Virus record (IMG/VR): IMGVR_UViG_3300033074_002207
Length of the DNA: 23,492 nt
Reading direction: 5' to 3' (one strand)
Source of the DNA: a virus
Taxonomy: Duplodnaviria > Heunggongvirae > Uroviricota > Caudoviricetes
Shown: positions 675-23,302 of the stretch, piece after piece
Position numbering within the stretch: the stretch's first letter is position 1
How the letters are laid out: each line of letters begins with the position of its first letter
Translations under genes and position numbers: made by a program
The notes under the pieces: model-generated
Databases searched by the model: none
What the model was told of the DNA's origin: nothing
Seen by the model: only the letters and a program-made list of their open reading frames with translations

Positions 675-707
675 TCCTCAATATACTCCTATGAAGTATA
701 TTGAGGA
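675..707. promoter_or_regulatory. Palindromic two-strand copy of the TCCTCA-N17-ATA motif
   Basis: TCCTCAATATACT...AGTATATTGAGGA inverted repeat; motif with exact 17-nt spacer reads on both strands. Confidence 0.6.
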
Positions 708-815
708 TACTCCAAGAAAGCAGGCACGCTAGAGACGTGATGTGATTGCTTTAAAAGACGAATAATGACCCGTTTCACGAATTCAAGTCATTATGAAGGC
801 GTCAACTTGGTGTAT
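707..815 (+). ncRNA. Candidate ~110-nt three-way-junction ncRNA
   Basis: Closing stem ATAC-T-CCAAG/CTTGG-T-GTAT; arms AAAGCA/TGCTTT with CACG/CGTG, and GACG+ATAATGAC/GTCATTAT+CGTC; begins at the predicted start site of the 675 motif. Confidence 0.5.
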
Positions 816-825
816 TTTTGTTTTT

Positions 826-910
826 GCGAGAGTGTCTCTAATGGTATGAGTGCAGGTTTCCACCCTGCTGCCTTTGCGCCTTGCGGGTTCGAGTCCCGTC
901 TCTCGCTCCA
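826..910 (+). tRNA. tRNA-Gly(TCC) with 14-nt variable region
   Basis: Acceptor GCGAGAG/CTCTCGC, T-CCA; anticodon arm GCAGG-TT-TCC-AC-CCTGC. Confidence 0.87.
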
Positions 911-913
911 AGT

Positions 914-1002
914 TTCTGAAGATTAGTATGGGCAAGGATAAATAGCAACTCCGTACCTGTACTACCAAAGGGGTTGCTACTGGATGGTAGGAGTCTTCAG
1001 AA
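914..1002 (+). ncRNA. Candidate pseudoknotted RNA in tRNA spacer
   Basis: P1 TTCTGAAGATT/AGTCTTCAGAA; P2 TAGCAACTCC/GGGGTTGCTA; loop CTACCA (962-967) complementary to TGGTAG (985-990). Confidence 0.5.
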
Positions 1003-1006
1003 TTAT

Positions 1007-1088
1007 GCCACCTTCGCATAATGGGATTGCACTTTCTTGGTAAGAAAGTCCTTCGGGGGAACGAGTTCGATTCTCGTAGGTGGCTCCA
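1007..1088 (+). tRNA. tRNA-Thr(GGT) with extended variable arm
   Basis: Acceptor GCCACCT/AGGTGGC, T-CCA; anticodon arm CTTTC-TT-GGT-AA-GAAAG; variable region TCCTTCGGGGGA. Confidence 0.87.
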
Positions 1089-1095
1089 GTTTTTT

Positions 1096-1124
1096 TTGAC
1101 ATTTCCAATATTTCGAGGTATAAT
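1096..1124 (+). promoter_or_regulatory. Consensus sigma70 promoter
   Basis: TTGACA (1096-1101), 17 nt, TATAAT (1119-1124). Confidence 0.85.
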
Positions 1125-1133
1125 ATTGGAGTT

Positions 1134-1502
1134 ATGTCTGATTCGATTCACACACCTGAAGAAAAGGCTGAAGCACTTGGCGGCTGTGGGCTGCTCATGA
1201 TTTTGATTGTTTTGGCTCCTTTTGCCACCTGGTGGCACGCATGGGTGACACTTACGATGTACAACTGGTTCATTTTACCATTTGTGGCAGGTGCTCCGGC
1301 TATGAGTATCATACCCTTTATTGGGTTGTCGAGTATTATGGGGATGTTCACCTATCATCTCGCAAATCTTGACAACACCAAGAAAGATGGCACTAAAATC
1401 AAGGCATCGGATATGTTCACAAAAGCTTTGACACGAATGTTTTTTTATCCGCTTGTTGCCCTTGGATTTGCTTGGGTGTATCAGTTCATTTTCATTCGTT
1501 AA
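1134..1502 (+). CDS. Hypothetical multi-pass membrane protein
   Basis: ATG 1134 lies after the sigma70 promoter and GGAG; the track start at 1080 is inside a tRNA; 3-4 hydrophobic segments. Confidence 0.8.
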   Translation: MSDSIHTPEEKAEALGGCGLLMILIVLAPFATWWHAWVTLTMYNWFILPFVAGAPAMSIIPFIGLSSIMGMFTYHLANLDNTKKDGTKIKASDMFTKALTRMFFYPLVALGFAWVYQFIFIR

Positions 1503-1509
1503 CATAAAT

Positions 1510-1586
1510 CGGTCTGTAGCTCAGTTGGTTAGAGCGTTGCCCTGTCACGGCAGAGGTCGCGGGTTCAAGTCCCGTCAGGCTGACCA
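1510..1586 (+). tRNA. tRNA with Asp anticodon (GTC) but Pro-like acceptor (C1-G72, A73)
   Basis: Acceptor CGGTCTG/CAGGCTG, A-CCA; anticodon arm TTGCC-CT-GTC-AC-GGCAG; canonical D and T arms. Confidence 0.9.
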
Positions 1587-1595
1587 GATTTAAAC

Positions 1596-1670
1596 GCGGG
1601 GTTGGTCTATTGGTTGTGGCCCTAGCCTTCCAAGCTTGAGAAAGGGGTTCGATTCCCCTACCCCGCTCCA
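1596..1670 (+). tRNA. tRNA-Gly(TCC)
   Basis: Acceptor GCGGGGT/ACCCCGC, T-CCA; loop CT-TCC-AA. Confidence 0.9.
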
Positions 1671-1675
1671 CTTTC

Positions 1676-1749
1676 GCGGCTGTATTTTAATGGTAGAATC
1701 TCTGCATGCCACGCAGAGGATGCGGGTTCGATTCCCGCCAGCCGCTCCA
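1676..1749 (+). tRNA. tRNA-Gly(GCC)
   Basis: Acceptor GCGGCTG/CAGCCGC, T-CCA; anticodon arm TCTGC-AT-GCC-AC-GCAGA. Confidence 0.92.
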
Positions 1750-1769
1750 GTTTATGGTATACTGGACGC

Positions 1770-2120
1770 ATGTCAGAACCAACATTGACAGGAACAAACT
1801 TTAAAGCACTTGCACATTTGCATCTGGGTACAATACCGGACTACAGCAGAAATGCAGAGCGTGCTTTGGTACTCTATCACTCTATTCATCTTGGTTTAGG
1901 GCACCCACAAGCAAAACTCAAGCGCGACATAAGCGAAACCATTGGTGCAATGACGATTTCTATTCCAAAAGGCACTGTTGTAAGATGCTTGTCATTCAAA
2001 AATGGATGGCGACGAAGGACTAATATTGAATTTCTCAACAAAGTACACGTGGTTGTACACGCAGACCATATGCCACACATCACTATGGCAGTCCCGTTGT
2101 CGATGTTAGAACCACTCTAA
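1770..2120 (+). CDS. Hypothetical protein, probably leaderless
   Basis: 116-aa ORF; TGG-TATACT extended -10 lies 6 nt before the ATG. Confidence 0.7.
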   Translation: MSEPTLTGTNFKALAHLHLGTIPDYSRNAERALVLYHSIHLGLGHPQAKLKRDISETIGAMTISIPKGTVVRCLSFKNGWRRRTNIEFLNKVHVVVHADHMPHITMAVPLSMLEPL

Positions 2121-2131
2121 GACTAGTCCTG

Positions 2132-2144
2132 GCCAGCCGCTCCA
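2132..2144 (+). repeat. 13-bp duplicate of the tRNA-Gly 3' end
   Basis: GCCAGCCGCTCCA identical to 1737-1749. Confidence 0.75.
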
Positions 2145-2248
2145 ATTTGAAAAATCCTCAAAATCAAATTCCGCCCCATAGAGAATCATGGCATCCGAGA
2201 GGGAAAGACAGAATTTCCTCAAATCGGTAGACCAGGAGATAAAAAACT

Positions 2249-2794
2249 ATGGCAGGAAAACGAAAAAACTTTCTTAACTACGCGGCGGCTCAAGCGTTCG
2301 TCGCCACTCTCGCTCTCACGTCCATGCAGGACTGGATTGCCTACTCGAAGGGTAAAGACCCGCAGGGTCGTACTCGACCGGAAGACATCCCGTCGAATCC
2401 GTGGACTGTCTACAAGGCTGAACTCACTGCGATGGGCAAGAAGTTCTCCATCAACGAGTTCATCGGGTGCAAGCTCCCTCGCAAGCCCCGAACGAAGAAG
2501 GCTGATGGCGCACCGAAGGCAACTCGCAAGCCGAAGGCTGATGCAGTTACCGTGACCGATGCTCCGGCTGATGTCCCTGTGGCGTCTCAGACTCCGTTCG
2601 AGATTGCGCGAACTGCGATTCAGGCTCTCAAGCTTCCGAATCGTGACGCCTTCTACGACCTGAAGCGCAAGAATATGCTTCCGGCTGGAGTTCCTCGCAA
2701 GCCCGAAGACACCTTTAAGGGTGAGTGGCAGGGTTGGGGCGACTTCCTCGGCAACGGCAACAAGCAGGTCGCCAAGAACACCGCTGACGCCTAA
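2249..2794 (+). CDS. Protein with two phage 'integrase repeat'-like units and a Lys/Ala/Pro-rich linker
   Basis: IPSNPWTVYK and LPAGVPRKPEDTFKGEWQGWGDFLG resemble the PxxPxxxYxxxWxGWxDFLG repeat; ATG 27 nt after TCCTCA. Confidence 0.75.
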   Translation: MAGKRKNFLNYAAAQAFVATLALTSMQDWIAYSKGKDPQGRTRPEDIPSNPWTVYKAELTAMGKKFSINEFIGCKLPRKPRTKKADGAPKATRKPKADAVTVTDAPADVPVASQTPFEIARTAIQALKLPNRDAFYDLKRKNMLPAGVPRKPEDTFKGEWQGWGDFLGNGNKQVAKNTADA

Positions 2795-2816
2795 AGAGCG
2801 CAAGCTCTCATGACTC

Positions 2817-2856
2817 GAAACGCAAGGGACAAAGGAATCCCTTGCGTTTCCAATTT
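2817..2856 (+). terminator. Hairpin, probable terminator
   Basis: 13-bp stem GAAACGCAAGGGA/TCCCTTGCGTTTC, weak T tail. Confidence 0.55.
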
Positions 2857-2888
2857 CCTCATTCACAAGGGTGATGGCATATAGAATC

Positions 2889-3053
2889 ATGGTTACAATC
2901 AAGGTTATGCTTGAACTCGAAGTGGAATGTCCCGAGGATATGGGCGCGGAAGAACTGGTGGACAAAATCATCATTAACGCCCATATTCCCAACCGACCCG
3001 ATATCGTTGTCAACGACTCCATTATCAATCTTGACTGGGAGGAGGAAGACTAA
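2889..3053 (+). CDS. Small acidic hypothetical protein
   Basis: ATG 2889 is 27 nt after TCCTCA 2856; MVTIKVMLELEVECP... Confidence 0.75.
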   Translation: MVTIKVMLELEVECPEDMGAEELVDKIIINAHIPNRPDIVVNDSIINLDWEEED

Positions 3054-3229
3054 TGGCGCGAAAAGTCACAATCGACGTGAAAGTACGACTGCACATTCGC
3101 GCAGATGACGACCAGAGTATTGACGAAGTGCTCCAGGAGATGGACTATAACTTCACAGCGAATGAAAGCACGGATGCTGACATCGAAGACACCGAAATTG
3201 TTGATTGGGAAATCTTGGACAGCAAGTAA
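3053..3229 (+). CDS. Small acidic hypothetical protein (58 aa, not in ORF track)
   Basis: TAATG coupling, GGAGG upstream; MARKVTIDVKVRLHIRADDDQSIDEVLQEMDYNF...DSK*. Confidence 0.75.
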   Translation: MARKVTIDVKVRLHIRADDDQSIDEVLQEMDYNFTANESTDADIEDTEIVDWEILDSK

Positions 3230-3278
3230 AAAGCCCATTCAATAAAACAAAATGTGTGGTATAATAACCGCACACAAC

Positions 3279-3354
3279 GCCGACTTAACTCAGTGGCCAG
3301 AGTGGCTGTTTTGTAAACAGCGAGTCAGGAGTTCGAATCTCCTAGTCGGCTCCA
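3279..3354 (+). tRNA. tRNA-Thr(TGT)
   Basis: Acceptor GCCGACT/AGTCGGC, T-CCA; anticodon arm GCTGT-TT-TGT-AA-ACAGC; TGG-TATAAT upstream at 3257-3265. Confidence 0.93.
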
Positions 3355-3364
3355 GTTTCATCAA

Positions 3365-3384
3365 GGAGAGTTGCCGGAGCGGTA
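3365..3384 (+). pseudogene. 5' fragment of a tRNA-Ser (acceptor strand plus D-arm start)
   Basis: GGAGAGT-TG-CCGGAGCGGTA; GGAGAGT pairs perfectly with ACTCTCC at 4038-4044. Confidence 0.7.
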
Positions 3385-3417
3385 GGTTGCCAGAGTTTCC
3401 ACGTAGAATATAACCTA

Positions 3418-3918: not shown

Positions 3919-3920
3919 GC

Positions 3921-4002
3921 GGAGGATGACCAGTTGGCTCTGGAGCCTGTCTTGAAAACAGGTAGCACTGCAAGGTGTGGGGTTCGATGCCTCCATCCTC
4001 CG
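3921..4002 (+). tRNA. tRNA-Ser(TGA), apparently 8/4 fold, no encoded CCA
   Basis: Acceptor GGAGGATG/CATCCTCC (8 bp), T-stem GGGG/CCTC (4 bp), anticodon arm GCCTGT-CT-TGA-AA-ACAGGT, variable arm GCAC/GTGT. Confidence 0.85.
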
Positions 4003-4005
4003 CTC

Positions 4006-4048: not shown

Positions 4049-4070
4049 GATTTTGGGTATAATACCATTG

Positions 4071-4382
4071 ATGTTCACATACTTCGTTCAGATGCTCGCA
4101 ACCATGTTTAAAGTTTCACCAGAAGACTTGGTGTGGGCTCGTGAGACAATCGACAATGGACGCACGCTGTTGATAGCGTGGGGATATACAGAAGAAGGAG
4201 CCAAGGAAGCTCTATTCAGCCAACGACGTAAAACAGTCATTGTTCACCCCGATGGTTTGCTGAAGGTGATAATTTCCAATGACGTGGAAGTGATTCCTGA
4301 AGATGTGATTGAATGGGTGTCGAATCACATGGGCTTTCCAATGCCTGTCAAAGAATCCTCAAACACTCAATCGGAAGCATAA
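4071..4382 (+). CDS. Hypothetical protein, probably leaderless
   Basis: TATAAT at 4058-4063, ATG 4071; the track start overlaps tRNA sequence. Confidence 0.7.
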   Translation: MFTYFVQMLATMFKVSPEDLVWARETIDNGRTLLIAWGYTEEGAKEALFSQRRKTVIVHPDGLLKVIISNDVEVIPEDVIEWVSNHMGFPMPVKESSNTQSEA

Positions 4383-4388
4383 TAAAAC

Positions 4389-4835
4389 ATGGCTACTGAA
4401 ACACTCACGCCCAACGAAGTTTATCGGGGATATACAATCGTCACGATGGTTAACCCTGTTGGAGAAATCCGCATTTGCGATGGTGACGGAGAATATCTTG
4501 AGAGTGGTAGTAAGATTGCCACGTTCCTCTCTTATGACCACGCGAAGGGTTTCATTGATGGATGGATTCGCAATGGTGGCATCGACCTTGGTGTTCCGCG
4601 CCAACGAGTCGAGCTTGGCGAAAGCGGGATGAACTTCATTGTGAGCACTCCTGGTGGCGAAATTAGAGCGTTGTCTGTTGGCGACAAAGATTATCCATCT
4701 CTCGACATTATGGTAGAGGGACGTGTCGTCGCCTTTATTGAATGGCACCCCGACTCAAAGCAATTTAACCTTCATGTCTACAGCAAGGACAACGACGACG
4801 AACCCGTCTTTACACTCGAAGACATCACTAACTAA
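4389..4835 (+). CDS. Hypothetical protein
   Basis: 148-aa ORF; ATG 27 nt after TCCTCA 4356. Confidence 0.8.
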   Translation: MATETLTPNEVYRGYTIVTMVNPVGEIRICDGDGEYLESGSKIATFLSYDHAKGFIDGWIRNGGIDLGVPRQRVELGESGMNFIVSTPGGEIRALSVGDKDYPSLDIMVEGRVVAFIEWHPDSKQFNLHVYSKDNDDEPVFTLEDITN

Positions 4836-5035: not shown

Positions 5036-5045
5036 ACAAGATTGT

Positions 5046-5896: not shown

Positions 5897-5934
5897 TTTT
5901 TCCTCAATAGTCCGTTTTTGAGGATATCATAAAC

Positions 5935-6034
5935 GGGTACGAAGTTCAAAGGCGGGTGACACACGTGGGAATCTCGCGGTCAGAACAGCTAGTGGTCTAG
6001 AAGGTTGCAGGTTAAAATCCTGCCGTGCCCGCCA
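5935..6034 (+). ncRNA. 100-nt tRNA-like RNA with 35-nt D-loop and non-functional anticodon arm
   Basis: Acceptor GGGTACG/CGTGCCC, G-CCA; D stem GTTC/GAAC; CTAG-TGGT-CTAG; T arm GCAGG-TTAAAAT-CCTGC. Confidence 0.7.
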
Positions 6035-6134
6035 ATTTCCCTTAGTTGTTCTCGAAAACAACGAAATGTCGCCTGGTTGTTCTGAAAAACGGACGCTTTC
6101 CTCAAAATCTTAAAGAGAAGTGTAGAATTAGCAC

Positions 6135-6317
6135 ATGGCTCGATACGTGATGAAATCAGAAGCTGGTAAAGGATGGCGCATATGGAACAATCATATGCGT
6201 CGATGGTGGGGAAACTGGTTTCCAACACAACCAGACGAGCTTGTTGAAGAACTTAATGGGAAAAAACGACCAGATGTTCTTGTTGCATTAACTAAGAAGT
6301 ATCAGCAAAAACGATAA
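6135..6317 (+). CDS. Small basic Trp-rich hypothetical protein
   Basis: 60 aa; variant motif TCCTCA 6099 and TAGAAT 6 nt before ATG. Confidence 0.7.
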   Translation: MARYVMKSEAGKGWRIWNNHMRRWWGNWFPTQPDELVEELNGKKRPDVLVALTKKYQQKR

Positions 6318-7946: not shown

Positions 7947-8025
7947 ATTCATTATACTCAAAGATTTATTGATATGAGGAATTTTTCCTTTTTCCTCAAT
8001 CCTGGCCGCATGCTCATACATTTGA

Positions 8026-8145
8026 TGAACTTGAGAGGGTGTCACACCAGGGATGCATCAGGTCGGCACTGTTTGAAGTAGTAACACACCTACTGAGATG
8101 AGAAGCTCAGCAAGGCTCGAAAGTAAATCCAGAAACTCAGGTTCA
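8026..8145 (+). ncRNA. Candidate ~120-nt ncRNA
   Basis: Starts at the predicted start site of motif 7993; 10-bp end-to-end stem TGAACTTGAG/CTCAGGTTCA; inner CTGAG/CTCAG. Confidence 0.5.
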
Positions 8146-8182
8146 AAATTCCTCATTTTGAGTCTATGATTGATATACAATC

Positions 8183-8473
8183 ATGGACAAACTGTATGAT
8201 TCAATGCCTTGTCTGACGAAGACTAAGGAACTCCGATTTGAAGTTACTGGGACAATCGCAGTCCCAAAAGAAGCCACTTTACTCTATGACGCATGGGGCG
8301 GGATTCGAGGCTATGAGATTCAGGGACGAGAGGTAAGTCTAGTTCTTGGATTGGAAGTCACCACGGATGGAATCAAATACGAATATCTGACTGGTGACGG
8401 TGAGATGGGACAACAGGTTGGGAGTCAAGTTCTCAACTATGACGTGACGAGTTTGTCTGAGGAGGATAACTAA
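8183..8473 (+). CDS. Hypothetical protein
   Basis: 96 aa; ATG 27 nt after TCCTCA 8150. Confidence 0.8.
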   Translation: MDKLYDSMPCLTKTKELRFEVTGTIAVPKEATLLYDAWGGIRGYEIQGREVSLVLGLEVTTDGIKYEYLTGDGEMGQQVGSQVLNYDVTSLSEEDN

Positions 8474-10104: not shown

Positions 10105-10140
10105 TTTTTCCTCAAAATAGAAAAGCATGGTATAATAGAA

Positions 10141-10715
10141 ATGTCGGAAGGGAAAGCCCCCGTGAGATTTAACTCTCGCAAAAATACATCTTTAGCGGGA
10201 TGGAAAGGCTCCTAGAGGTAGCGTCTAGGCTGACAGTCAAATCGTGCGCACGAAATGACACCAGGTATGGGCTGGATGCAAGCCCGAATATGAGAAGTGT
10301 AAGCAACGACATCACTCACCTGGAAAATTGAACTGGGGAGGGCACCGACGAATCGTCCCCTTGGATGAAGGCGGAACGCTTAACCCCAGTTCAGTTAAGG
10401 TTTGGGGAAACCCATTAACGTTGTAGATGTGACCGGAACACTGACAACGAGAAAGCAGTGCAGTTTTAGAATAAGGCTGGATAAAAACACTGGGGTAAGA
10501 GCCCTCATTTACTCAGGAATCTGTAACTCCGTGAAGGAGTCTGACGAGACGAATGGAAGGATTGTACAGTCCCCGGTAGTCGAAACAGATAGACGGAACG
10601 GCGCGTGTGGAATTGACTGTGCTAAACACGCGAGTAAGGTAACAGTCTGCGGAACCGCTGGATGGTCATAAGGCGAATTCTTAAGATTATTGACTAAGCG
10701 CTTAATCTTGTCGGT
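10141..10715 (+). ncRNA. Candidate large (~575 nt) multi-domain structured ncRNA; 3' end approximate
   Basis: TCCTCA 10109 plus TGG-TATAAT promoter; >15 short helices, including TGTCGG/CTGACA, CCAGGT/ACCTGG, 13-bp AATTGAACTGGGG/CCCCAGTTCAGTT and long-range GTGACC/GGTCAT; no credible ORF. Confidence 0.7.
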
Positions 10716-11170: not shown

Positions 11171-11205
11171 ATTCCTCATTTCGCACGCCATTCGAATATT
11201 AAACT

Positions 11206-11484
11206 ATGACACAGGCGATGACATGGGCTGTACTCCGGGAATTCTGGCTAGAATATGGCAGTATTGTTCCTTCGAAAGTCCAGGATAACATCAAGGAACT
11301 GTTGGAGTTCTTCAAGCCTAACTATGTTGATGACACCAATCTTGGTGACTCGGGATATGTCTACTTCATTGACGGAAGCACTATCCTTTACGACTGGGAT
11401 GAAGGACATTTCGAATGTGAAGGGCGTAGGCTACAATACCCCTACGACAAAGATGACCCGCTTTTCTGGAAGTCTGACAGCTAA
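11206..11484 (+). CDS. Hypothetical protein
   Basis: 92 aa; ATG 27 nt after TCCTCA 11173. Confidence 0.8.
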   Translation: MTQAMTWAVLREFWLEYGSIVPSKVQDNIKELLEFFKPNYVDDTNLGDSGYVYFIDGSTILYDWDEGHFECEGRRLQYPYDKDDPLFWKSDS

Positions 11485-11547
11485 GCACGCATACAATATA
11501 AAGGGGCTTTAATATCCTCATTTGAACCTGATTCGGCATATATAATC

Positions 11548-11736
11548 ATGCCGAAGTTCAAAGTATTTATCACCGCGATGGCTGTGGTTTCTCAGTCACA
11601 AATCGTAGAGGCGGACGACATGGAATCTGCCCGCGCTCTTGCTGTTAAGCCCGAGACCTATAACAATGGAACTTGGGATTACTGCGGGGTTGAAGACGAC
11701 ACCGTTCAATGCGACGAAGTTGAGGGAGGATACTAA
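11548..11736 (+). CDS. Small acidic hypothetical protein
   Basis: MPKFKVFI...IVEADDMESA; ATG 27 nt after TCCTCA 11515. Confidence 0.8.
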   Translation: MPKFKVFITAMAVVSQSQIVEADDMESARALAVKPETYNNGTWDYCGVEDDTVQCDEVEGGY

Positions 11737-12038
11737 TGGTAAAAATCAAACCAGACAGACAGGATGTCAAGGATATTCTTTATGCTGTGAAATGTGCAGT
11801 CGATTGGCAGAAGGATTACAAAGTTCAAGTAGTAGGACTTAACTCTCATGGCAGGATTGCATGGTATCAAGGCTTTAGTGCCGTTCGAGAATATCGAGTC
11901 ATACCTCTTGCTGTTTACACCACTACCAGACATGGCATCAAGACAGAATATGAAGGTATTGTTGCCAATGACCCCAAACTCTTCGCGCAGTTTGAAGAGG
12001 CGATGAGGGTGGCGATGCTAAATTCCTCAAAAACGTAG
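11736..12038 (+). CDS. Hypothetical protein
   Basis: GGAGG SD and TAATG coupling. Confidence 0.78.
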   Translation: MVKIKPDRQDVKDILYAVKCAVDWQKDYKVQVVGLNSHGRIAWYQGFSAVREYRVIPLAVYTTTRHGIKTEYEGIVANDPKLFAQFEEAMRVAMLNSSKT

Positions 12039-12056
12039 AAACAAACATACGTTATC

Positions 12057-12293
12057 ATGGACAAAATGGTTTTTGAATCAGAAGAGCCCATTACATTAAC
12101 ATCGGAAGATAGTGGTTGTGCGATGTTGGTTGATGAGGGAGAACCCTATTTCGTAGGGGACGACGACGCAGCCATGTGGGTGCGTCTTGGGAGTTGGGAT
12201 GACAACGGTTATAAAAACCCTGAGATTTCTCATACTCAAATCAAAAAACTCGTGGGCAAACGTGTCCGCGTCACTTTGGAGGTGATTGAATAA
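12057..12293 (+). CDS. Hypothetical protein
   Basis: 78 aa; ATG 27 nt after TCCTCA 12024. Confidence 0.8.
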   Translation: MDKMVFESEEPITLTSEDSGCAMLVDEGEPYFVGDDDAAMWVRLGSWDDNGYKNPEISHTQIKKLVGKRVRVTLEVIE

Positions 12294-12688: not shown

Positions 12689-13327
12689 ATGCGCAGGACA
12701 GACCCACAATCTCCCATCATCCTTGACCGAACCACTGACGAACTAGAAGAATGTCTATTGTTTTGCATTGTGGTTGCGGGTAAAACAGCCGCCACTCAAC
12801 AAAGACTTCTCAAGAATTTTCTTACTTCTTTTCCCAGTCAATCGACATCTCCTTTTGATTTGATTCGGGAGATGGATGCTGCGGGTAAACTTTCCCAGCA
12901 ATTGATGTATTCCAAACTGGGTCAATACACCAGGCTTACGAGTTGTTTCCGAGACCTGGTGGCTTCGAATCTCGATTTGCGCACGTGTACAATTGACGAC
13001 CTGGAAGCGATTCATGGCATTGGCCCCAAAACGGCACGCTTCTTTTTAACTTGTACCAGGTCCGATGTGCGCTTTGCTGTCATCGACACGCACCTACTGA
13101 AATTCATGCGCGATTATCTAGGTGAGCATAATATTCCAGTTACAACACCAGGAAACAAAAAAGAATATAGCAGGCTAGAAAAATTGTATTTGGATTACGT
13201 AGATAGAGTCGGTGTGAATCCTGCGGAACTTGACCTAGCTATCTGGAAAATTTATGCCAACAAGGATAGTGCAGACTTCGATAGACTCACCAAAATTCCT
13301 CAAAATATGATGACGGCTCATAACTAA
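12689..13327 (+). CDS. HhH-GPD superfamily DNA glycosylase/AP lyase (Ogg-like)
   Basis: HhH motif LEAIHGIGPKTARFFL with Lys, then AVIDTH with catalytic Asp; C-terminal ELDLAIW. Confidence 0.8.
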   Translation: MRRTDPQSPIILDRTTDELEECLLFCIVVAGKTAATQQRLLKNFLTSFPSQSTSPFDLIREMDAAGKLSQQLMYSKLGQYTRLTSCFRDLVASNLDLRTCTIDDLEAIHGIGPKTARFFLTCTRSDVRFAVIDTHLLKFMRDYLGEHNIPVTTPGNKKEYSRLEKLYLDYVDRVGVNPAELDLAIWKIYANKDSADFDRLTKIPQNMMTAHN

Positions 13328-13329
13328 GT

Positions 13330-13581
13330 ATGGATAGGAAAACATACCCTCGACACACCAGCATCTTTTCGGGATGCGGTTGCATTCTTCTCATTCTTGC
13401 AATCAACTTGACACTCGGGGCTTACTGCTTCAACTACTGTCTCGGTGTTATCTGGGGTACCCAACTGAGTTTCGGGTTGGCAATCCTTGGCGGATTGTTC
13501 CTCGGAGAAATCGCCATTCCTGCGGCAGTCATCTGCTGGCTCATCACTCTTTCGGGAGTACCAACACCATTCATTCACTAA
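13330..13581 (+). CDS. Small membrane protein
   Basis: Hydrophobic 83 aa; ATG 27 nt after TCCTCA 13297. Confidence 0.78.
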   Translation: MDRKTYPRHTSIFSGCGCILLILAINLTLGAYCFNYCLGVIWGTQLSFGLAILGGLFLGEIAIPAAVICWLITLSGVPTPFIH

Positions 13582-14136: not shown

Positions 14137-14411
14137 CCAATCAAATCTGGAAAGACTTCCATGTCGTTGATATAGAGCCGCTCGACCCACAATGGTGTGG
14201 CGTGGTGTTGGCTGATGGCGAAGGGACTGTAATGTCTGCCACTTGTAAGATGGACGATAAACCATTTGACGGTGAACTAATTAGAGTCCCTTACTACTAT
14301 GAGGGAAGCGGTATTCTCAACTTCTACTCATGTGGTTTGTACAGTCCAACAGATGTCACTTCGTTGTTTAAAACCATCTCGGACGATGCTCCAAAAAAAT
14401 CCTCAAAATAA
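14133..14411 (+). CDS. Hypothetical protein
   Basis: ATGA overlap, 92 aa. Confidence 0.72.
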   Translation: MTNQIWKDFHVVDIEPLDPQWCGVVLADGEGTVMSATCKMDDKPFDGELIRVPYYYEGSGILNFYSCGLYSPTDVTSLFKTISDDAPKKSSK

Positions 14412-14432
14412 AATTTCAGTCCATATATAGAC

Positions 14433-14822
14433 ATGGAAACGAAAGACAGGGTTTTAACCGTTCGGTTTCGATGTAAGCATCTCACGGAAAGTCCCGTTTT
14501 GGGAAAAATCACCGATACGATGCTCGAAGTCGCCGCGCTTGAGTTCTTCAAGCTCTACTTCTCTGATAGCGATGAAATCAACCCCGAGGCTGGAGATTTT
14601 TACACGCTCAATCCTGTAAGCGCAATGTTTGAATACACTGTGCCGACAGACCGTGAATCAGTCATGGACTATCTGTCTCTCTGCAACGTCCCCCTCGATG
14701 AACAGAACATCCTCGAAGAAATCCGCACGAGAGAGTTGGAGAACGAAGGCATGACCCGCTCCGATGCCCAAAGCGTGGTGGATGTCGAAGTCAGAACAGG
14801 TAAGTTGAAGGTGGGATTATGA
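14433..14822 (+). CDS. Hypothetical protein
   Basis: 129 aa; ATG 27 nt after TCCTCA 14400. Confidence 0.8.
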   Translation: METKDRVLTVRFRCKHLTESPVLGKITDTMLEVAALEFFKLYFSDSDEINPEAGDFYTLNPVSAMFEYTVPTDRESVMDYLSLCNVPLDEQNILEEIRTRELENEGMTRSDAQSVVDVEVRTGKLKVGL

Positions 14823-15013: not shown

Positions 15014-15130
15014 AAAACCCTCAAATCCTGAAATCGCCGGATAAATAACTAGGAAAAAACCAGATGGACGCTGTATAAATATAGTGTCCATCTATCGCCC
15101 AAGTGCGAACTCAGGACAAGGAATAAAACA

Positions 15131-16671: not shown

Positions 16672-16704
16672 CCCTCAAATAAATTTCTAAGAGGATAAAG
16701 AACT

Positions 16705-16941
16705 ATGAAAGTCACTTCTACAAATGGGAACGGAAGCAACGGCATTCGTGGTAGTCGAATCACTATTCGAGCCAACGATGGTGTTGTGATTGACAGGTTT
16801 ATAGTGCCATCTATGTATGGTGGTGTGAACTACTGCAAGCGTTATCCCACCGGGAAATATGGCAAGAGATTCTATGAAGGTCTCCGTAAGTGCTCTGAAT
16901 ATGAGAAGCAAAATTCCTCAAATCAGACTTGCGCGGAATAG
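16705..16941 (+). CDS. Small hypothetical protein (paralog of 16439-16636)
   Basis: YPTGKYGKRFY motif; ATG 27 nt after CCCTCA 16672. Confidence 0.75.
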   Translation: MKVTSTNGNGSNGIRGSRITIRANDGVVIDRFIVPSMYGGVNYCKRYPTGKYGKRFYEGLRKCSEYEKQNSSNQTCAE

Positions 16942-16947
16942 ATAATC

Positions 16948-17247
16948 ATGGACATTTCCGAAACCAAGAAGAAACTCAACGCGGCTTTCCAAGCACTTCG
17001 CAAGGTTGGGTATACAGCCAAGCAGAACTTCTGGTGTTGCCAGAACTGCGCGTGGCACGCTCTCACCGACGAAGAGGCTGATAAAGCAGTATTTTACCAT
17101 CAACAGGACAACGACACTTTCAAGGAAACTGGCGAGTGCTATTTGGCTTGGAGTGGCAATGGTGCTGAAATCGTTGGCATCCTCGAAGAAGCTGGTTTGA
17201 CCGTGACGTGGAACGGCTCAGACACGCAGAGGATTATGGTCAAGTAA
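16948..17247 (+). CDS. DUF6891-like protein
   Basis: LNAAFQALRKVGYTAKQNFWCCQNCAW...FYHQQD...YLAW...WNGS signature. Confidence 0.75.
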   Translation: MDISETKKKLNAAFQALRKVGYTAKQNFWCCQNCAWHALTDEEADKAVFYHQQDNDTFKETGECYLAWSGNGAEIVGILEEAGLTVTWNGSDTQRIMVK

Positions 17248-17280
17248 TCCTCATTTTGAATCCACAAGGAATATAAAATC

Positions 17281-17976
17281 ATGCAAACGCAAATCGAAAA
17301 CCTAGTATCGCAGCTTACGGGAAATGCAACTATGTTCACGGCGTTCGACATCACTATGATGTTGCGTCGGGCAAATCCCACGACCAATATTCGGCATGGA
17401 GAAGTTCGTGACGCAATTCACAATCTCTATTCCAACAACCAAATGAACGGCTTTGTCCGTGACCTTGTGCGAATGGACAATGGTCAGGAAGCCTTCGTCT
17501 ATCATGCCTATGGCACTGATGCGGAGGATTACGACCCGCTTTTTTTCGCCAATACAACCCCGCAGTTTCTGTCAGTCCCCAACGGCTTGACGACGCCTAC
17601 CCCAGCGGTGGCAAGTCCAGTTCCGACGACGAGCCAGAACTTGACGACCTCACCAACTGGTAGCAACAAGCCCAAACGCGCTCGCTACGACCTGAATCAA
17701 GTCCCGCAGGATAAGTTTGGACGAATTCGAGTCCCCGCTTCTGCTCTGCGTTCGGCTGGTTTCAATCCCAACGACACCGTTCGCGTCGTCGTTGACCCCA
17801 ATCTGATTGTTGTCACCAGTGTCAACGACCAGTATGGCGTCCAACGTTCGGGTAAGAAGTACGTTGTTGACCAGTACAACAACATTCGTGTCCATCTTCG
17901 CGGAAAGTTCCAGAGCAATAAGTTTGCAATGCAACCTGCTCCGTCGAACAACATGATTTACATTCGTCCTGTTTAA
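17281..17976 (+). CDS. Putative DNA-binding protein with C-terminal AbrB/SpoVT-like domain
   Basis: DKFGRIRVPASALRSAGFNPNDTVRV pattern after a Pro/Thr-rich linker. Confidence 0.7.
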   Translation: MQTQIENLVSQLTGNATMFTAFDITMMLRRANPTTNIRHGEVRDAIHNLYSNNQMNGFVRDLVRMDNGQEAFVYHAYGTDAEDYDPLFFANTTPQFLSVPNGLTTPTPAVASPVPTTSQNLTTSPTGSNKPKRARYDLNQVPQDKFGRIRVPASALRSAGFNPNDTVRVVVDPNLIVVTSVNDQYGVQRSGKKYVVDQYNNIRVHLRGKFQSNKFAMQPAPSNNMIYIRPV

Positions 17977-18464: not shown

Positions 18465-18499
18465 AAATCCTCAAAATCATTTTCCCTGGTATACTATTG

Positions 18500-18766
18500 A
18501 TGTCAGCGGCGTAACGAACCAAAGACAGTCCAAATGGGTGAGGACTCTAATCAGACACCCGTAGAATTAAGGTGGTTACTACGACAGCAAACCCCGCTGG
18601 CGCACGACAGGGAAAGTGGACGTGTACGCTGGAAACTTGCGTTATAAGTCATAAAGAACGGTGCGTGATGTCTGCCCTAAACATCACAGGGTGAGTGCTA
18701 CCATTGCGACGGTAAATGGACAAGGCTCATTAACAGCCCGGAGTGTCGTTAGCTTCGGGCTTTTTT
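18500..18766 (+). ncRNA. Candidate ~265-nt structured ncRNA with its own promoter and terminator
   Basis: TCCTCA 18468 plus TGG-TATACT; P1 TGTCAGCGG/CCGCTGGCG; GGGTG/CACCC, CGTAG/CTACG, GTGATGT/ACATCAC, CCATT/AATGG; terminator at the end. Confidence 0.7.
18735..18766 (+). terminator. Rho-independent terminator
   Basis: AGCCCGGAG/TTCGGGCT stem plus T tract. Confidence 0.75.
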
Positions 18767-18798
18767 CCTCACAAATTGTTCGGCGCGAATATAAAGAT

Positions 18799-19215
18799 AT
18801 GAATGAAGACAAGTTTTTCGAGCACTTCTCGCCCATCAAGAATCATCTCGTTGAAGACGCCCCGCACGGTGGATGTATGTTTGAAACATACGGGCAGGAA
18901 TTAGACTTCGTGCTCGCACAACCCATCAACACTGTTTGGACGGTTGTTGAAGGCGATAACGATACCATGTGGTATTGTAAGGGCTGGCTTCGAGTGAATC
19001 GACTCGGCTATCTTATCACCTCGGTGCCTTGGACAGCAGATGATGAAGATGTTCAATGTGACATGGAAGGCGAGCAAGAGATGTCTGAAGAGGATTTCGA
19101 GTCCTTGGTTGATGAAAAACTTGTTCTTGTGCGTCAAGAATACGGTGAAAGCATCGGACCAGAGGAAGCCTACCGTCTTGCAAGAAATCTTGTTAGGCAA
19201 GACCAGTCCAGCTAA
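18799..19215 (+). CDS. Hypothetical protein
   Basis: ATG 18799 is 27 nt after TCCTCA 18766; FETYGQELDFV...VWTVVEGD...VNRLGYLITSVPW. Confidence 0.82.
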   Translation: MNEDKFFEHFSPIKNHLVEDAPHGGCMFETYGQELDFVLAQPINTVWTVVEGDNDTMWYCKGWLRVNRLGYLITSVPWTADDEDVQCDMEGEQEMSEEDFESLVDEKLVLVRQEYGESIGPEEAYRLARNLVRQDQSS

Positions 19216-19248
19216 TCCTCATATCTTGAATCTGGGGCATATTTAATC

Positions 19249-19476
19249 ATGCCCCATCAAGCAGTTTCAGTTAACATTAAGGTTGATGTCACAGGCGTAG
19301 GCTTGGACGATGAAGACCTGTTTCGACAACGATGCTTCGACCGTCTTCAGGAAATCATGGCGGGCGGAATCGAATCATTCGCGGACCAAGCAACTCTCGA
19401 AGGTTTCGATGAGTTCGATGATGAGGAAGATGAGTTGGCTCAAGACTTTCTCAAGAATAAGGAGTATGGACTATGA
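19249..19476 (+). CDS. Small acidic hypothetical protein
   Basis: ATG 27 nt after TCCTCA 19216. Confidence 0.78.
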   Translation: MPHQAVSVNIKVDVTGVGLDDEDLFRQRCFDRLQEIMAGGIESFADQATLEGFDEFDDEEDELAQDFLKNKEYGL

Positions 19477-19673: not shown

Positions 19674-19709
19674 AATTCCTCATCTTCTACAAGCGCTGGA
19701 TAAATAATC

Positions 19710-20093
19710 ATGGCAACAACGAAACCAATCACCGCTCGGCAGTTTGAATCTTTGCTTGAAAATCTTGATTCGTACAACTGTACGGGCTTTTCTCACAACG
19801 TAGGAAATGAGCCGTCGAAGTGGGATACCTTGCACTTTAAATATGATGGCTCGCCCGAAGTTGGGGTGGGTTTTTATCTGTCACACCCGTTGACTCCTGA
19901 TAAGAGTCGCATTGACTACAATACCATTGAAGTGGGCTTCGGCGCGAAATACCCCATCGAACAGCGCTGGTCATTGCGTGTCACGAACCCTGCTCAAGTG
20001 GAACGACTCACCAAGGCTGTTGCGCCATATCTGGAGCAGTACCGTCAGTCGCTGATTCTTGGACATCGCCCGTCGATGTCTATGTTGGGGTAA
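19710..20093 (+). CDS. Hypothetical protein
   Basis: ATG 27 nt after TCCTCA 19677. Confidence 0.8.
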   Translation: MATTKPITARQFESLLENLDSYNCTGFSHNVGNEPSKWDTLHFKYDGSPEVGVGFYLSHPLTPDKSRIDYNTIEVGFGAKYPIEQRWSLRVTNPAQVERLTKAVAPYLEQYRQSLILGHRPSMSMLG

Positions 20094-20126
20094 TCCTCAT
20101 AATTAGCCATGATTTGATATAGAATC

Positions 20127-20639
20127 ATGGCTAATCCTGTTTTACAACTCGCGGAACACATTGATGAGGTTTGCGGACTTAGCACCACTGGTGGTGTAGC
20201 TTCTTTTTTCGATGAGAGCGGAAATCTGCGCCCGTGCAATCCGGGTGAAAACATTTTCGCTTTCAATGTTGCTTGCAGTCTCAACATTTATGACCCAGAA
20301 GAGCACGATTCATTCATCCAAAATGTATGGAACAACCTTGAGGGAGATTTGTCGGGTCTCAAGCATATTCAAAAAGCTCTGGATGAATTTCAAATGCCCG
20401 AATTGGACACATCTCCGCTGCAAACCATTTATGGTGTCGGCATTACCTTCGAGGATTTGATTCCAGAGGTGGGTGAAGGAGAGGAGCGACAAAACGTGAC
20501 CGTGTACGACGCTGCGGCTGATGAGTATTACCCAGCATCGCTCGCCCGCGCAGGTTTTTCCAACGATGTGCTCGATGAAGGACATATCGTCATCGTCATC
20601 AACCAAATTCCTCAATCTTCTGAAGATAAGGATAACTAA
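20127..20639 (+). CDS. Acidic hypothetical protein
   Basis: ATG 27 nt after TCCTCA 20094. Confidence 0.8.
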   Translation: MANPVLQLAEHIDEVCGLSTTGGVASFFDESGNLRPCNPGENIFAFNVACSLNIYDPEEHDSFIQNVWNNLEGDLSGLKHIQKALDEFQMPELDTSPLQTIYGVGITFEDLIPEVGEGEERQNVTVYDAAADEYYPASLARAGFSNDVLDEGHIVIVINQIPQSSEDKDN

Positions 20640-20641
20640 GT

Positions 20642-20938
20642 ATGTACAAGCTGAAGCACGTTTCTAAGCTGGAGGATATTCCAAAGGAGCCGCACTATGT
20701 CATCGTTGAGATGAACTCGGTGTTTATCCCCGGAGATGAGAGGTCTCGAACTCATCCTGGTCATGGATACCCAGAACGAACCGAATACTATACTTCTATG
20801 TGGGTGACCACCTCACGAGAAGACTGGGAGGAGGAAATCAAGGAACGCTGCGAGCGAGACCTGAAGGAAAAGGAAAAGTTTATCGCTTACCACGTTGACC
20901 ACATTGCGAGTGTATGGCTCAGCGTGGAGGTGATATGA
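20642..20938 (+). CDS. Hypothetical protein
   Basis: ATG 27 nt after TCCTCA 20609; IPGDERSRTHPGHGYPE motif. Confidence 0.8.
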   Translation: MYKLKHVSKLEDIPKEPHYVIVEMNSVFIPGDERSRTHPGHGYPERTEYYTSMWVTTSREDWEEEIKERCERDLKEKEKFIAYHVDHIASVWLSVEVI

Positions 20939-21129
20939 GAGGCAACGGCACGCCGCCCGCAGGCGGCACTCTCATCATGGCTTTTCTGCTGATGCTGCTG
21001 TTTTTTGTGATTATCACAATGATTGGCAACGGATGTGACAACTACAGAAAGAACACATATAAAGAGGGGTACGATAAAGGATATTATGACGGATACTGGA
21101 AAGCCCAGTCCGAACACGGCATCTTTTAA
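20935..21129 (+). CDS. Small TM protein with YxxGY repeats
   Basis: GGAGG SD, ATGA overlap; YKEGYDKGYYDGY. Confidence 0.72.
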   Translation: MRGNGTPPAGGTLIMAFLLMLLFFVIITMIGNGCDNYRKNTYKEGYDKGYYDGYWKAQSEHGIF

Positions 21130-21166
21130 AATTCCTCAAAATCTGATTTGACGAGATACCAGAAAC

Positions 21167-22792
21167 ATGGTACACTCGCACATTCCATTTGAGATGGACC
21201 CGGCACTATTGCTAGCGGTCATTCGTAAACAAGCAGGGAGTCTGGATAAGGCTCTTCTCGAAGCTGTGATGAATTCTATTGATGCTGGTGCATCTTCTGT
21301 TTCTATCACACTCACCCCTGAATTCGTCACGATTGACGATGATGGAAGGGGTTTTCGAGGGGCTGATGAAGTCAGACAGTTCTTTGCGCGATTCGGCACT
21401 CCACACCAAGAGGGCGATTCCATCTATGGCAAGTTTCGCATGGGTCGTGGACAAATGTTTTCATTCGGGCGCAATAGTTGGCGCACGGGAACATTCTTGA
21501 TGGACGTTGACATCAACGTAACCATCGGTTTTGAACTCTTTGAAGAGTTGGAAGATTCTCCGGGTTGTCAAATCAAGATTGACCTGTATGAACATCTTTC
21601 TATACCCGAACTTTACGCTGTCAAAAAGTCGTTGGCTAAGATGGTGAAATACTCACAGATTCCCGTCTATCTCAACGGTGAACAAATCAGCGTAGAAGTC
21701 GAGGAAAAGAACTTCCCGCAGACGATTGAAGAAGCGTTTATCAATACTGAGAAAACCAACACAGGTGGCGTCGAGGTTTATAACCTTGGGGTGTATGTAT
21801 GTACATTCCCTGCTTATCAGTTTGGTATCTCTGGTACGGTGATTAGTCGTAAGCAGTTGGACGTAAACTTTGCGCGAAATCAAGTGTTGGGTAGCTGTCC
21901 TATCTGGAAGCGTATCAAGCAAGTTATTGATTCTTCTGGTGCGAAGAAAGTCACTGAAAAGCAAGAACTTACTCAGGCAGAACGAGAGAATATCATCAAT
22001 CGACTGATGGATGGTTCTCTGAAAGCATATCAAGTGAAGAAATCGAAGTTTCTCACTGATGTTACTGGAAAACATTGGTCGCCTTCGAGCATTAAGCGCA
22101 AGAAGTTTATTCACTACTCCGTTGCTCCAAGTGGTGACGCTATCGGTGATAGAATCATGCAACGTAACCAAGCGTTCGTTCTGAGCCAAGAATGCGCCGA
22201 CCTGTTTGCAGAGTTCGGAGTATCGGTAGACCAGATTATGAATCGGTTGCAAGATTATGATGTTCTACCGTCATATAAACCTTTGGAGTTCTTTTCAGAG
22301 GATATGAATGACGAACACTACATTCTTCCTTCCGATGAATGGAAGAAAGCGGAAAAGGCTTGGATGAAAGTCGCAGAACATATGTTTGCATACTTGCGAC
22401 GTGACAACTATCGAATGCGACGAAGATTCTTTGTGGGTCAGTCCGACGTTGCTGATGGATGGACTGATGGTAGTAGCTATATCGCTATCAATCGAGGCTT
22501 TATGTCTGGACTTAAAATGTTCAAAGACGGTATGGCTAACCCAAGTGCATTCATGTCTATGTTGATGTTGGTGGCGCACGAAATGTGCCATGACACCGAT
22601 AGCCGTGACAACATTCATTCCCCTGACTTCTATCGCGCATTTCACGACTTGGTGAGTCGAGAAGGTCATGTCGCCCTGTCATATACTATGAAGTGGATGA
22701 CTCCGGCTCGATACAAGACGCTCACAGGGGCTTACGAATCGACGGAAGAAGTGGTGATGATTGCCACCGACGAAAATCTAGTCACCGCGTAA
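21167..22792 (+). CDS. GHKL (Hsp90/MutL/MORC-like) ATPase with C-terminal HExxH motif
   Basis: EAVMNSIDAGA, IDDDGRGF, YGKFRMGRG motifs; VAHEMCH...HSPDFY. Confidence 0.85.
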   Translation: MVHSHIPFEMDPALLLAVIRKQAGSLDKALLEAVMNSIDAGASSVSITLTPEFVTIDDDGRGFRGADEVRQFFARFGTPHQEGDSIYGKFRMGRGQMFSFGRNSWRTGTFLMDVDINVTIGFELFEELEDSPGCQIKIDLYEHLSIPELYAVKKSLAKMVKYSQIPVYLNGEQISVEVEEKNFPQTIEEAFINTEKTNTGGVEVYNLGVYVCTFPAYQFGISGTVISRKQLDVNFARNQVLGSCPIWKRIKQVIDSSGAKKVTEKQELTQAERENIINRLMDGSLKAYQVKKSKFLTDVTGKHWSPSSIKRKKFIHYSVAPSGDAIGDRIMQRNQAFVLSQECADLFAEFGVSVDQIMNRLQDYDVLPSYKPLEFFSEDMNDEHYILPSDEWKKAEKAWMKVAEHMFAYLRRDNYRMRRRFFVGQSDVADGWTDGSSYIAINRGFMSGLKMFKDGMANPSAFMSMLMLVAHEMCHDTDSRDNIHSPDFYRAFHDLVSREGHVALSYTMKWMTPARYKTLTGAYESTEEVVMIATDENLVTA

Positions 22793-22828
22793 ATTCCTCA
22801 TTCTCCGGGCGAAGGCAATAGAGTTAAT

Positions 22829-23302
22829 ATGAAAATCGAGTTAAAGAACTTCAAACACTCTGCCTTCGCCTCTCAGGAAACCCTGTGCTATGAAGCGAAG
22901 GTTTACGTCGATGGGAAGCTGTTCGGAACTGCTCGGAATCAAGGAACAGGCGGATGCACGGACATTTGGGTTGAGCCGTCGATGCGCGAACTTGAGCCCA
23001 AGGTTCTGGAATACTGCAAGAATCTTCCGCCCTTTGAAAGCGACGGCATGACTCTGCCGATGGACTTGGAGTTCCACTTGGACTTGCTGGCTCACCGAAA
23101 GGTTGTAGAAGGCGAGTTGAAGCGGATGCTCAAGAAGAAGATTGTCGTTAAGAAGCCTGACGACAATGAGATTTATTACTTCACTCCCCGTGGCACTGTT
23201 TTGACCGAGGCGATTATCAATCAGTTTCAGGCGCAGAATCCCACGTTCACAGTCCTGAATCTCATGCCCTTCGAGAAGGCTTTGGACATTTTTGCGGTAT
23301 AA
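22829..23302 (+). CDS. Hypothetical protein
   Basis: 157 aa; ATG 28 nt after TCCTCA 22795; SQETLCYEAKVYVDGK...ARNQGTGG. Confidence 0.8.
   Translation: MKIELKNFKHSAFASQETLCYEAKVYVDGKLFGTARNQGTGGCTDIWVEPSMRELEPKVLEYCKNLPPFESDGMTLPMDLEFHLDLLAHRKVVEGELKRMLKKKIVVKKPDDNEIYYFTPRGTVLTEAIINQFQAQNPTFTVLNLMPFEKALDIFAV

Follow-up and report, generated by a model that had tools for sequence, protein, structure and literature searches.

What reads a bipartite signal that recurs 26 times on one strand of a tailed-phage DNA, and where would transcription begin at it? The signal, YCCTCA-N17-ATA, lies in IMG/VR record IMGVR_UViG_3300033074_002207 (Caudoviricetes), in a stretch of 23,492 nucleotides (nt) that is part of a 156,614-nt source contig and is referred to here as the window. 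An earlier interpretation made from the letters alone (the sequence-only reading) had taken the signal for a non-canonical promoter of a largely leaderless regulon, served by a phage-encoded sigma factor, RNA polymerase or activator. Comparison with related phages makes it very probable that TCCTCA-N17-ATA is a promoter with leaderless starts. As to its reader, the best explanation, to which we give a probability of roughly 0.6, is the host core RNA polymerase carrying a mobile-element sigma of a divergent, group 3-like family (A4) with a lineage-private -35 word.

On the plus strand of the window, 26 of the 29 YCCTCA hexamers, at positions 675 to 22795, are followed by N17-ATA. The recount thus gives the same number as the sequence-only reading, and the enrichment test proposed with that reading yields a strong excess at spacer 17: third-order Markov sequences (200 of them) hold a mean of 0.3 matches and a maximum of 3. 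Plus-strand matches number 0 at a spacer of 16 nt, 0 at 18 nt and 7 at 19 nt, the last being ATATA overlaps. The claimed invariance of the 17-nt spacer therefore stands in the window, but it fails across the clade, where relatives mostly have 18 nt. Only 2 of the 15 minus-strand hexamers match, one at 707 (the palindrome arm opposite 675) and one within a gene at 8463; two GTA variants occur, at 6099 (plus) and 7980 (minus). The motif logo consists of a W-tract, TCCTCA, a second W-tract, a free spacer, a weak G/S preference at -12/-11, ATA, an A-rich stretch, a pyrimidine and ATG. The A/T tracts flank the hexamer at -38 to -34 and -27 to -25, and the letters of the spacer are unconstrained while its length is constant over the 26 sites. 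Numerous hexamers start 1–5 nt past the stop codon of the preceding gene.

An ATG stands 7 nt past the ATA (27 nt past the hexamer) at 18 of the 26 sites and 8 nt past it (28 nt) at 2, at the coordinates that had been listed before. The other six sites face a tRNA-like match (5935), non-coding stretches, or a leader before a PARP gene, and a pyrimidine-purine step lies 7 or 8 nt past the ATA at every one of the 26. The base at -1 is a pyrimidine at 20/20 motif-proximal starts versus 4/12 coupled downstream starts. Strong Shine-Dalgarno sites (-5.9 kcal/mol or better) precede 1/20 motif-proximal and 9/12 coupled starts (p 7e-5), the 12 comparison starts having been picked by hand; at a cut-off of -4.5 the counts are 5/20 and 9/12 (p 0.01). 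A wider comparison with 23 mixed starts, which include sigmaA-type leaderless genes and two wrong coordinates, is not significant (p 0.12). The lack of a Shine-Dalgarno site that had been claimed for these genes, as opposed to the coupled ones, is thus borne out for strong sites. One RNA run (X20) shares 0.06 of the window's words, in short, low-depth contigs that show no start, strand or expression.

The class differs from ordinary sigmaA promoters, which the same phages also possess. TCCTCA agrees with TTGACA at 3/6 letters, and genuine TTGACA/TAGACA promoters are found separately, at 1096 and 9018. The sigmaA -10 letters are not kept (T at -12 in 4/26, A at -11 in 5/26, T at -7 in 11/26). 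A consensus TATAAT or TATACT lies behind the hexamer at 2/26 sites only (10109 and 18468), a feature in which the set departs from T4 middle promoters. The sigmaA-type leaderless promoters of this phage family place TATAAT 6 nt ahead of the ATG, a different register from the TCCTCA class; their presence suggests that the host lineage translates leaderless messages.

If the signal is a promoter whose transcripts begin at the ATG, its distance to the ATG should be kept in relatives, and it is. The window's 541-aa GHKL ATPase used alone as a query found no viral locus; an alignment of the family found 32 viral loci, 11 genome loci and 80 metagenome loci, the last being the best 80 of 202. Six of these 123 loci carry the TCCTCA class: L190 and L191 with a 17-nt spacer, and L195, L197, L198 and L199, in which 18 nt and GTA predominate. 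In L190, 15/23 WW-YCCTCA hexamers head N17-NTA-N7-start; in L195, 15/20 head N18-NTA-N7; L198 has 27 such hexamers, 15 with N18 and 5 with N17. The -1 base is a pyrimidine in 14/14, 15/15 and 21/21 cases in L190, L195 and L198. The gap from TA to ATG thus remains 7 nt, as in the window, although the spacer shifts from 17 to 18, which is expected of promoters whose start is tied to the ATG. Likewise, the promoters of ATPase orthologs conserve the hexamer, the TA and the spacing, and their spacer letters are wholly different. Taken with the -1 pyrimidine, these comparisons support the proposal that the geometry fits a start on the A of ATG.

Among 41 records the sole clear excess is in G003, a phage record of the same family (177.7 kb, 47% complete) with 23 matches versus 3 in the reversed control. 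It includes a divergent pair at 174559/174563 and 5 hybrid sites bearing a true TATAAT or TATACT. When IMG/VR was scanned for the pattern with a 17-nt spacer, the matches listed (120 of about 280, and 37 in a further scan) were isolated and chance-like; with an 18-nt spacer the scan gave 34 loci with one genuine array, that of G003 (L347). Where close relatives differ in gene content, the indels end at the repeats. Contig joints in run X4 (11170–11478, 11501–12009 and 12040–12279) are cassette losses at promoter junctions, and the cassette at 16672 is missing from L190.

Phages related to the window offer several candidate readers. One ATPase locus lies in G001, a record of 478,840 bp that has terminal repeats and carries about 64 tRNAs and a transfer-messenger RNA (tmRNA). 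Array genes, the glycosylase (66%) and the succession Ser-Met-Ile(TAT) among the tRNAs are common to G001 and the window. G001 encodes four sigma-70-family proteins. The RNA polymerase beta subunit (PF00562) has no match in G001, which is complete, or in G003, and this disfavours a phage RNA polymerase as the reader. Of the three kinds of reader that the sequence-only reading had allowed, the polymerase accordingly loses ground, and a sigma is favoured, of mobile-element type and not seen on the part of the phage's own contig that the window covers. The search for sigma and polymerase genes proposed there found sigmas in relatives, no beta subunit in G001 or G003, and no sigma gene in the window. 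A SigH-like sigma and a 197-aa sigma occur in all these phages, with recognition helices unchanged whatever the motif, also in G019, which has no array across its 358 kb; the differing -35 words therefore cannot be set by them. An antisense SigH promoter was considered as well, the reverse strand of the motif reading AGGA-W-tract, which we take to be SigH-like. It was rejected: there is no conserved base in the 45 nt upstream, and AGGA-N15..18-GAAT is barely above control (45 versus 36 in G001, 14 versus 10 in G003).

Differing words are found in the sister phages, whose arrays occupy the homologous variable region. CGGYCCCRGA has 81 plus-strand sites within 320–369 kb of G001, versus 4 in the control, and also forms an array in G002:C5. 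In G010, the word TTTCCAGG has 41 sites with an ATG 32 nt on, among 69 matches in 187 kb; in G008, AAATCCCCY has 28 with an ATG 37 nt on, among 179 loose matches in 319 kb. In form, the CGGYCCCRGA array (L158, L193, L270 and G001 320–369 kb) has no clear -10 and often one terminator-hairpin arm before leaderless-looking ATGs. The G010 array (1–80 kb) reads TTTTTCCAGGTTTAACA...TATAAT merely 4 nt ahead of the ATG, and the G008 array (1–60 kb) reads AAAAATCCCCY...GATATATAAA. Locus L204 has yet another private word near its ATPase homolog: GATCGGGTCCC occurs there about 20 times, roughly 35 nt ahead of Shine-Dalgarno-led starts.

A third sigma type, of 285 aa, is encoded 3–4 kb away from where the CGGYCCCRGA array begins, in both G001 and G002:C5. 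Its wider family, A4, is highly divergent, and the closest solved structures are FliA and WhiG; for the G001 protein the best named NCBIfam match is SigI, far below the cut-off. The A4 member of G010 has the same gene neighbourhood as that of G001, both following a radical SAM gene, and A4 sigmas are present in 3/4 sister records with arrays. Immediately upstream of the G001 gene is TATAGT, which suggests a cascade from sigmaA to the phage sigma.

The link between this family and TCCTCA comes from a bacterial chromosome. In G352, a 2.6-Mb Armatimonadota genome, all 4 full matches fall within one 26-kb integrated element (G352:C3, 318–344 kb; L441–L443) with serine and tyrosine recombinases, restriction-type cargo, a gene that we take to be ArdC-like from its sequence, and a TCCTCA-N18 promoter. 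On the minus strand of the element 7/19 TCCTCA have NTA at N18, versus 0/28 in the 74 kb flanking it. The product of the gene behind the outermost match, P0428, belongs to the sigma-70 family (TIGR02937, expectation value (E) 2.6e-10), is found in 1/401 Armatimonadota genomes and is homologous to A4 (hhalign 98.9%). Where a sigma gene is headed by its own promoter, the product is usually the cognate factor, a premise used in the portion of PMC4711584 available to us, and the position of P0428 behind a TCCTCA promoter thus points to an A4-type sigma as the cognate factor here. In the ESM Atlas, P0428 has viral and bacterial sigma clusters, given without alignments and taken as a lead only. No sigma-family loci were retrieved from IMG/VR or plasmids, and the A5 profile has weak matches, at E 1e-13 to 1e-15, in 5/401 Armatimonadota genomes. 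A recombinase island of G002 contains three TCCTCA sites that have no 7-nt start and were not counted; the single full match of G002 lies elsewhere.

Putting these observations together, the mechanism that we favour is as follows. The host core RNA polymerase would take up an A4-family sigma, whose region 4 would contact TCCTCA in its A/T tracts and whose region 2 would open the DNA at RTA. RNA would begin 8 nt past the A of RTA, on the ATG, and ribosomes would load without a Shine-Dalgarno site; the downstream genes of each unit would rely on ordinary Shine-Dalgarno sites. Phage promoters of the sigmaA type would express the sigma early, and the sigma would then turn on the one-gene cassettes of the variable region as a middle or delayed-early class. 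Through a fast-changing region 4, the lineages may each have acquired a -35 word of their own, TCCTCA in the present one and YCCCGG or TCCAGG in sister phages, and the repeated promoters would allow whole cassettes to be gained or lost.

Several observations weigh against a reader of the A4 family. P0428 is only remotely related to the rest of A4 (E 1.4e-9), so that its sharing of a word with the phage is presumed. The A4 profile has 0 matches in the window and in the TCCTCA-bearing metagenome loci. G003 has the motif and no A4 gene in its 177.7 kb; the radical SAM gene that neighbours the sigma is absent from it too, so the sigma region may be missing from this partial record. G008 (378.8 kb, CheckV 100%, no end repeats) has its TCCCCY array and no A4 gene. 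Should the flipped -11 base be the R of RTA, transcription beginning at the ATG would start one base nearer than in the sigma-28 promoter of PMC12784957. The true TATAAT or TATACT at some sites (10109, 18468 and the 5 in G003) would fit sigmaA with an activator, and the assignment of the host to Armatimonadota leans on a relative that carries a different motif.

The hybrid sites bring in the alternative that host sigmaA reads the signal with the help of a phage protein at TCCTCA, an activator or a remodeller of sigma that relaxes the -10 in the manner of T4 MotA/AsiA or PafBC; T4 middle promoters involve phage activator and anti-sigma genes. We hold this to be possible but on the unlikely side. 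TCCTCA occupies the place of the -35, the hybrids have the form TCCTCA-N16/17-TATAAT-N6-start, and the G008 array exists without an A4 sigma. A gene for an AbrB/MazE-like domain protein (Pfam E 3e-4, below the cut-off) stands under the site of ATG 17281, and the sigma gene was not seen on the part of the phage's own contig that the window covers, which leaves room for an activator. Yet the letters that sigmaA requires at -12 and -7 are not kept, as counted above, and the RTA core is off the TATAAT-N6-ATG register of the sigmaA-type promoters in the same phages. Nor would an activator explain why a sigma gene heads the set of sites in the G352 island. A borrowed host alternative sigma (SigB/SigF-, FliA- or SigI-like), with TCCTCA-N17/18-RTA as its natural promoter, appears less likely still. 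Small genes arrayed in cassettes frequently belong to the early class, whose transcription would require a factor that is there from infection on, and this counts for a host sigma. The motif also resembles the sigmaI promoters (CCCYYAAA, CGWA) in the part of PMC4711584 that was available. However, the 401 Armatimonadota genomes contain no chromosomal TCCTCA regulon (13 strict matches, at most 2 per genome, control 3), and neither do 151 genomes of the family of G352 (0–19 loose matches versus 0–26 in controls). Among 10 matches inspected, only that of the island opens an open reading frame (ORF) longer than 44 codons. These genome counts, together with the 3/6 agreement with TTGACA, sustain the claim that the -35 is not that of host sigma70, with the proviso that excluding the housekeeping promoter by host-genome counts holds only if the host is in Armatimonadota. 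The other words at the equivalent place in sister phages would likewise not be allowed by a borrowed host sigma unless the hosts differ widely.

Another phage factor, namely the SigH-like, 197-aa or 189-aa sigma or a divergent phage or virion RNA polymerase, is quite improbable. It is true that the motif-bearing G003 encodes the SigH-like and 197-aa sigmas, that G008 encodes these and the 189-aa type, and that virion polymerases of jumbo phages read dense sets of early promoters (AR9, PMC5312081, as far as its accessible part describes them). But the SigH-like and 197-aa sigmas have identical recognition helices in phages with four different motifs, and G001 and G003 lack a beta subunit, in a search that did not extend to single-subunit or very divergent polymerases. 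Hardly any weight is left for a signal that is no promoter and works on RNA or as a recombination site. The hexamer resembles an anti-Shine-Dalgarno sequence, and cassette indels end close to the sites. Against this, tRNA-like and non-coding units are also headed by the signal, the pyrimidine-purine step is present at 26/26, the spacer is free in letters and fixed in length, and divergent pairs exist (7980/7993 in the window, 174559/174563 in G003).

If an A4-family sigma is indeed the reader, the G352 island, in sharing TCCTCA, would be triggered by the phage through promoter mimicry, and the sigma family would supply private codes for phages and islands. This is a speculative extension that we regard as rather unlikely. 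Were it true, infection by a jumbo phage of the TCCTCA type would fire the promoters of the island, including those of its own sigma, the recombinase and the ArdC-like gene, and the sigma-promoter pairs would make a natural orthogonal kit for leaderless expression.

The individual sites, all on the plus strand unless stated, show how the signal is distributed. The first (675..709) has no ATG, forms a palindrome with the opposed minus-strand site at 707 and lies 5' of the tRNA-Gly at 826. The site at 2155..2190 (ATG 2188) opens an ORF of <40 codons, and that at 2216..2251 (ATG 2249) precedes a 181-aa product with a homolog within the G001 array. Plain matches to the pattern, each with the ATG at 27 nt, are 2856..2891 (ATG 2889), 4356..4391 (4389), 8150..8185 (8183), 11515..11550 (11548), 12024..12059 (12057), 13297..13332 (13330), 14400..14435 (14433), 19216..19251 (19249), 19677..19712 (19710), 20094..20129 (20127) and 20609..20644 (20642). 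The two sites with the ATG at 28 nt are 21133..21169 (ATG 21167), which heads the ATPase used as the probe for relatives, and 22795..22831 (ATG 22829), again a match to the pattern. At 5901..5935 transcription is predicted to start at G 5935, where the tRNA-like Rfam match 5935–6031 begins. The GTA variant at 6099..6137 overlaps a sigmaA-type TAGAAT-N6-ATG (6123–6137), and that on the minus strand (7955..7980) faces the ORF 7447–7842 and is divergent from the site at 7993..8027, which has no ATG and a short non-coding stretch downstream.

Farther along, the site at 11173..11208 (ATG 11206) belongs to a cassette absent from one run X4 contig, and the site at 15018..15051 would give an 80-nt leader to the WGR-PARP gene (15131–16438). 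The one at 16672..16707 (CCCTCA, ATG 16705) has a counterpart in L190 that precedes the following gene instead. The site at 16915..16950 (ATG 16948) heads a DUF6891 gene, that at 17248..17283 (ATG 17281) the AbrB/MazE-like gene, and that at 18766..18801 (ATG 18799) stands immediately 3' of a terminator-like hairpin. Both hybrids precede non-coding DNA. TCCTCA-N16-TATAAT (10109..10143) is followed by the stretch 10143–10400, of which 53 nt are 92% identical to the beginning of the G001 promoter array. TCCTCA-N16-TATACT (18468..18502) is followed by a 260-nt unit that ends in the hairpin 18735–18761. This unit (18502–18765) is 89% identical in L190/L191 and has an equivalent in place in L195; an Rfam search gave no match, and with a z of -1.06 the unit folds unremarkably. 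The contrasting class is represented by a perfect sigmaA-type TTGACA-N17-TATAAT at 1096..1124, with others at 6798 and 9018, and by a leaderless TATACT-N6-ATG at 1758.

The window otherwise contains 16 ARAGORN tRNAs, HNH nucleases, the WGR-PARP, an Ogg-like glycosylase, the GHKL ATPase and many small genes of unknown function. Its tRNAs (181–11170) comprise repeated Gly, Asp, Thr and Ser copies interleaved with HNH genes, plus tRNA-Ile(TAT), and ARAGORN missed tRNA-like remnants at 5935–6031 and 9693–9744. The WGR-PARP protein (WGR, PARP regulatory and PARP catalytic domains) is 77–98% identical across the TCCTCA-clade loci and 38% identical to those of Xanthomonas jumbo phages. The window belongs to a tRNA-rich jumbo phage family, of which INPHARED holds no close relative; near-identical DNA is present in sludge, wastewater and freshwater runs. 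In this family ARAGORN calls tRNA-Pyl(CTA) in G001 and G003 (L308, L312, L363) and tRNA-SeC(TCA), next to the tmRNA, in G001; the Pyl and SeC calls may be suppressor tRNAs. Another of the ATPase loci lies in the jumbo-phage-like part, the initial ~540 kb, of G002:C5, a 1.36-Mb contig whose rest resembles an Armatimonadota chromosome in 20 sampled 20-kb pieces. The 540-kb stretch is either a very large prophage or an assembly join. Because this one relative is joined to such a chromosome, the host of the window phage is likely to be in Armatimonadota, a placement taken from the relative only.

For a jumbo phage family that is not yet described and likely infects Armatimonadota, the window supplies a predicted promoter word together with a candidate for its reader. 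Regulons of phage sigmas are a known type, to which this word and its candidate reader would add a variant. Literature searches, with subscription journals largely outside their coverage, returned nothing relevant on the word or the phage family and no jumbo phage work on Armatimonadota. In the variable region, ribosome-binding sites would be almost entirely lacking from the genes that open each unit, and a phage regulon would be linked to a chromosomal island. Different -35 words paired with divergent sigmas of one family would also provide a system for studying how region 4 is re-coded and how orthogonality arises.

Compared with known systems, the bipartite layout and the ATA or GTA core near -10 are shared with the group 3 sigmas, sigma-28/FliA and SigB/SigF. 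SigB reads the word GGGTAT. FliA reads TCTAAAG and GCCGATAA with ATA at -11 to -9 (PMC12784957, in part), whereas the -35 here is TCCTCA and the ATA is at -10 to -8 of the ATG; only the ATA core and the G bias at -12/-11 agree. The sigmaI promoters of Bacillus and Clostridium thermocellum, as far as PMC4711584 was accessible, have CCCYYAAA, 13–14 nt and CGWA, with private -35 words among paralogues. They are alike in a C-rich -35 followed by A residues and in a CGWA-like -10. The distance from the AAA triad is, however, 15 nt in the N18 relatives with CGTA, 1–2 nt longer, the window has ATA and not CGWA, and the transcripts are predicted to be leaderless; an anti-sigma partner was not seen. 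Leaderless starts have precedents in Thermus phage phiYS40, in which most transcripts of a class lack a leader (PMC3594737, accessible portion), and in Deinococcus-Thermus (PMC12340547, likewise in part), but the latter use the host TANNNT -10, whereas the class described here is set by a private -35 and a shifted three-base -10. AR9 promoters have other words and are read by phage polymerases, according to the available text of PMC5312081. The PeSL cassettes of T4-type phages (PMC4122927, partial text) are alike in that repeated promoters bound one-gene cassettes of variable regions and mark the ends of indels. PeSLs combine an early promoter with a stem-loop, while terminator-like hairpins adjoin only the sites at 18766 and 17248 of the window; the sister CGGYCCCRGA array, unlike most window sites, frequently has a hairpin. 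The closest parallel is offered by the regulons of phage sigmas (the middle and late sigmas of SPO1, group 2 jumbo phages), which, in the accessible part of PMC7824862, likewise combine the host core, sigmaA-type promoters and phage sigmas with no polymerase of their own; the relatives G001 and G003, too, lack a polymerase beta subunit and have host-type promoters alongside. What would set the present system apart is a different sigma family and word, nearly one promoter per gene, starts on the ATG, a -35 word that varies among sister lineages, and the occurrence of the word and the sigma family in a chromosomal island as well.

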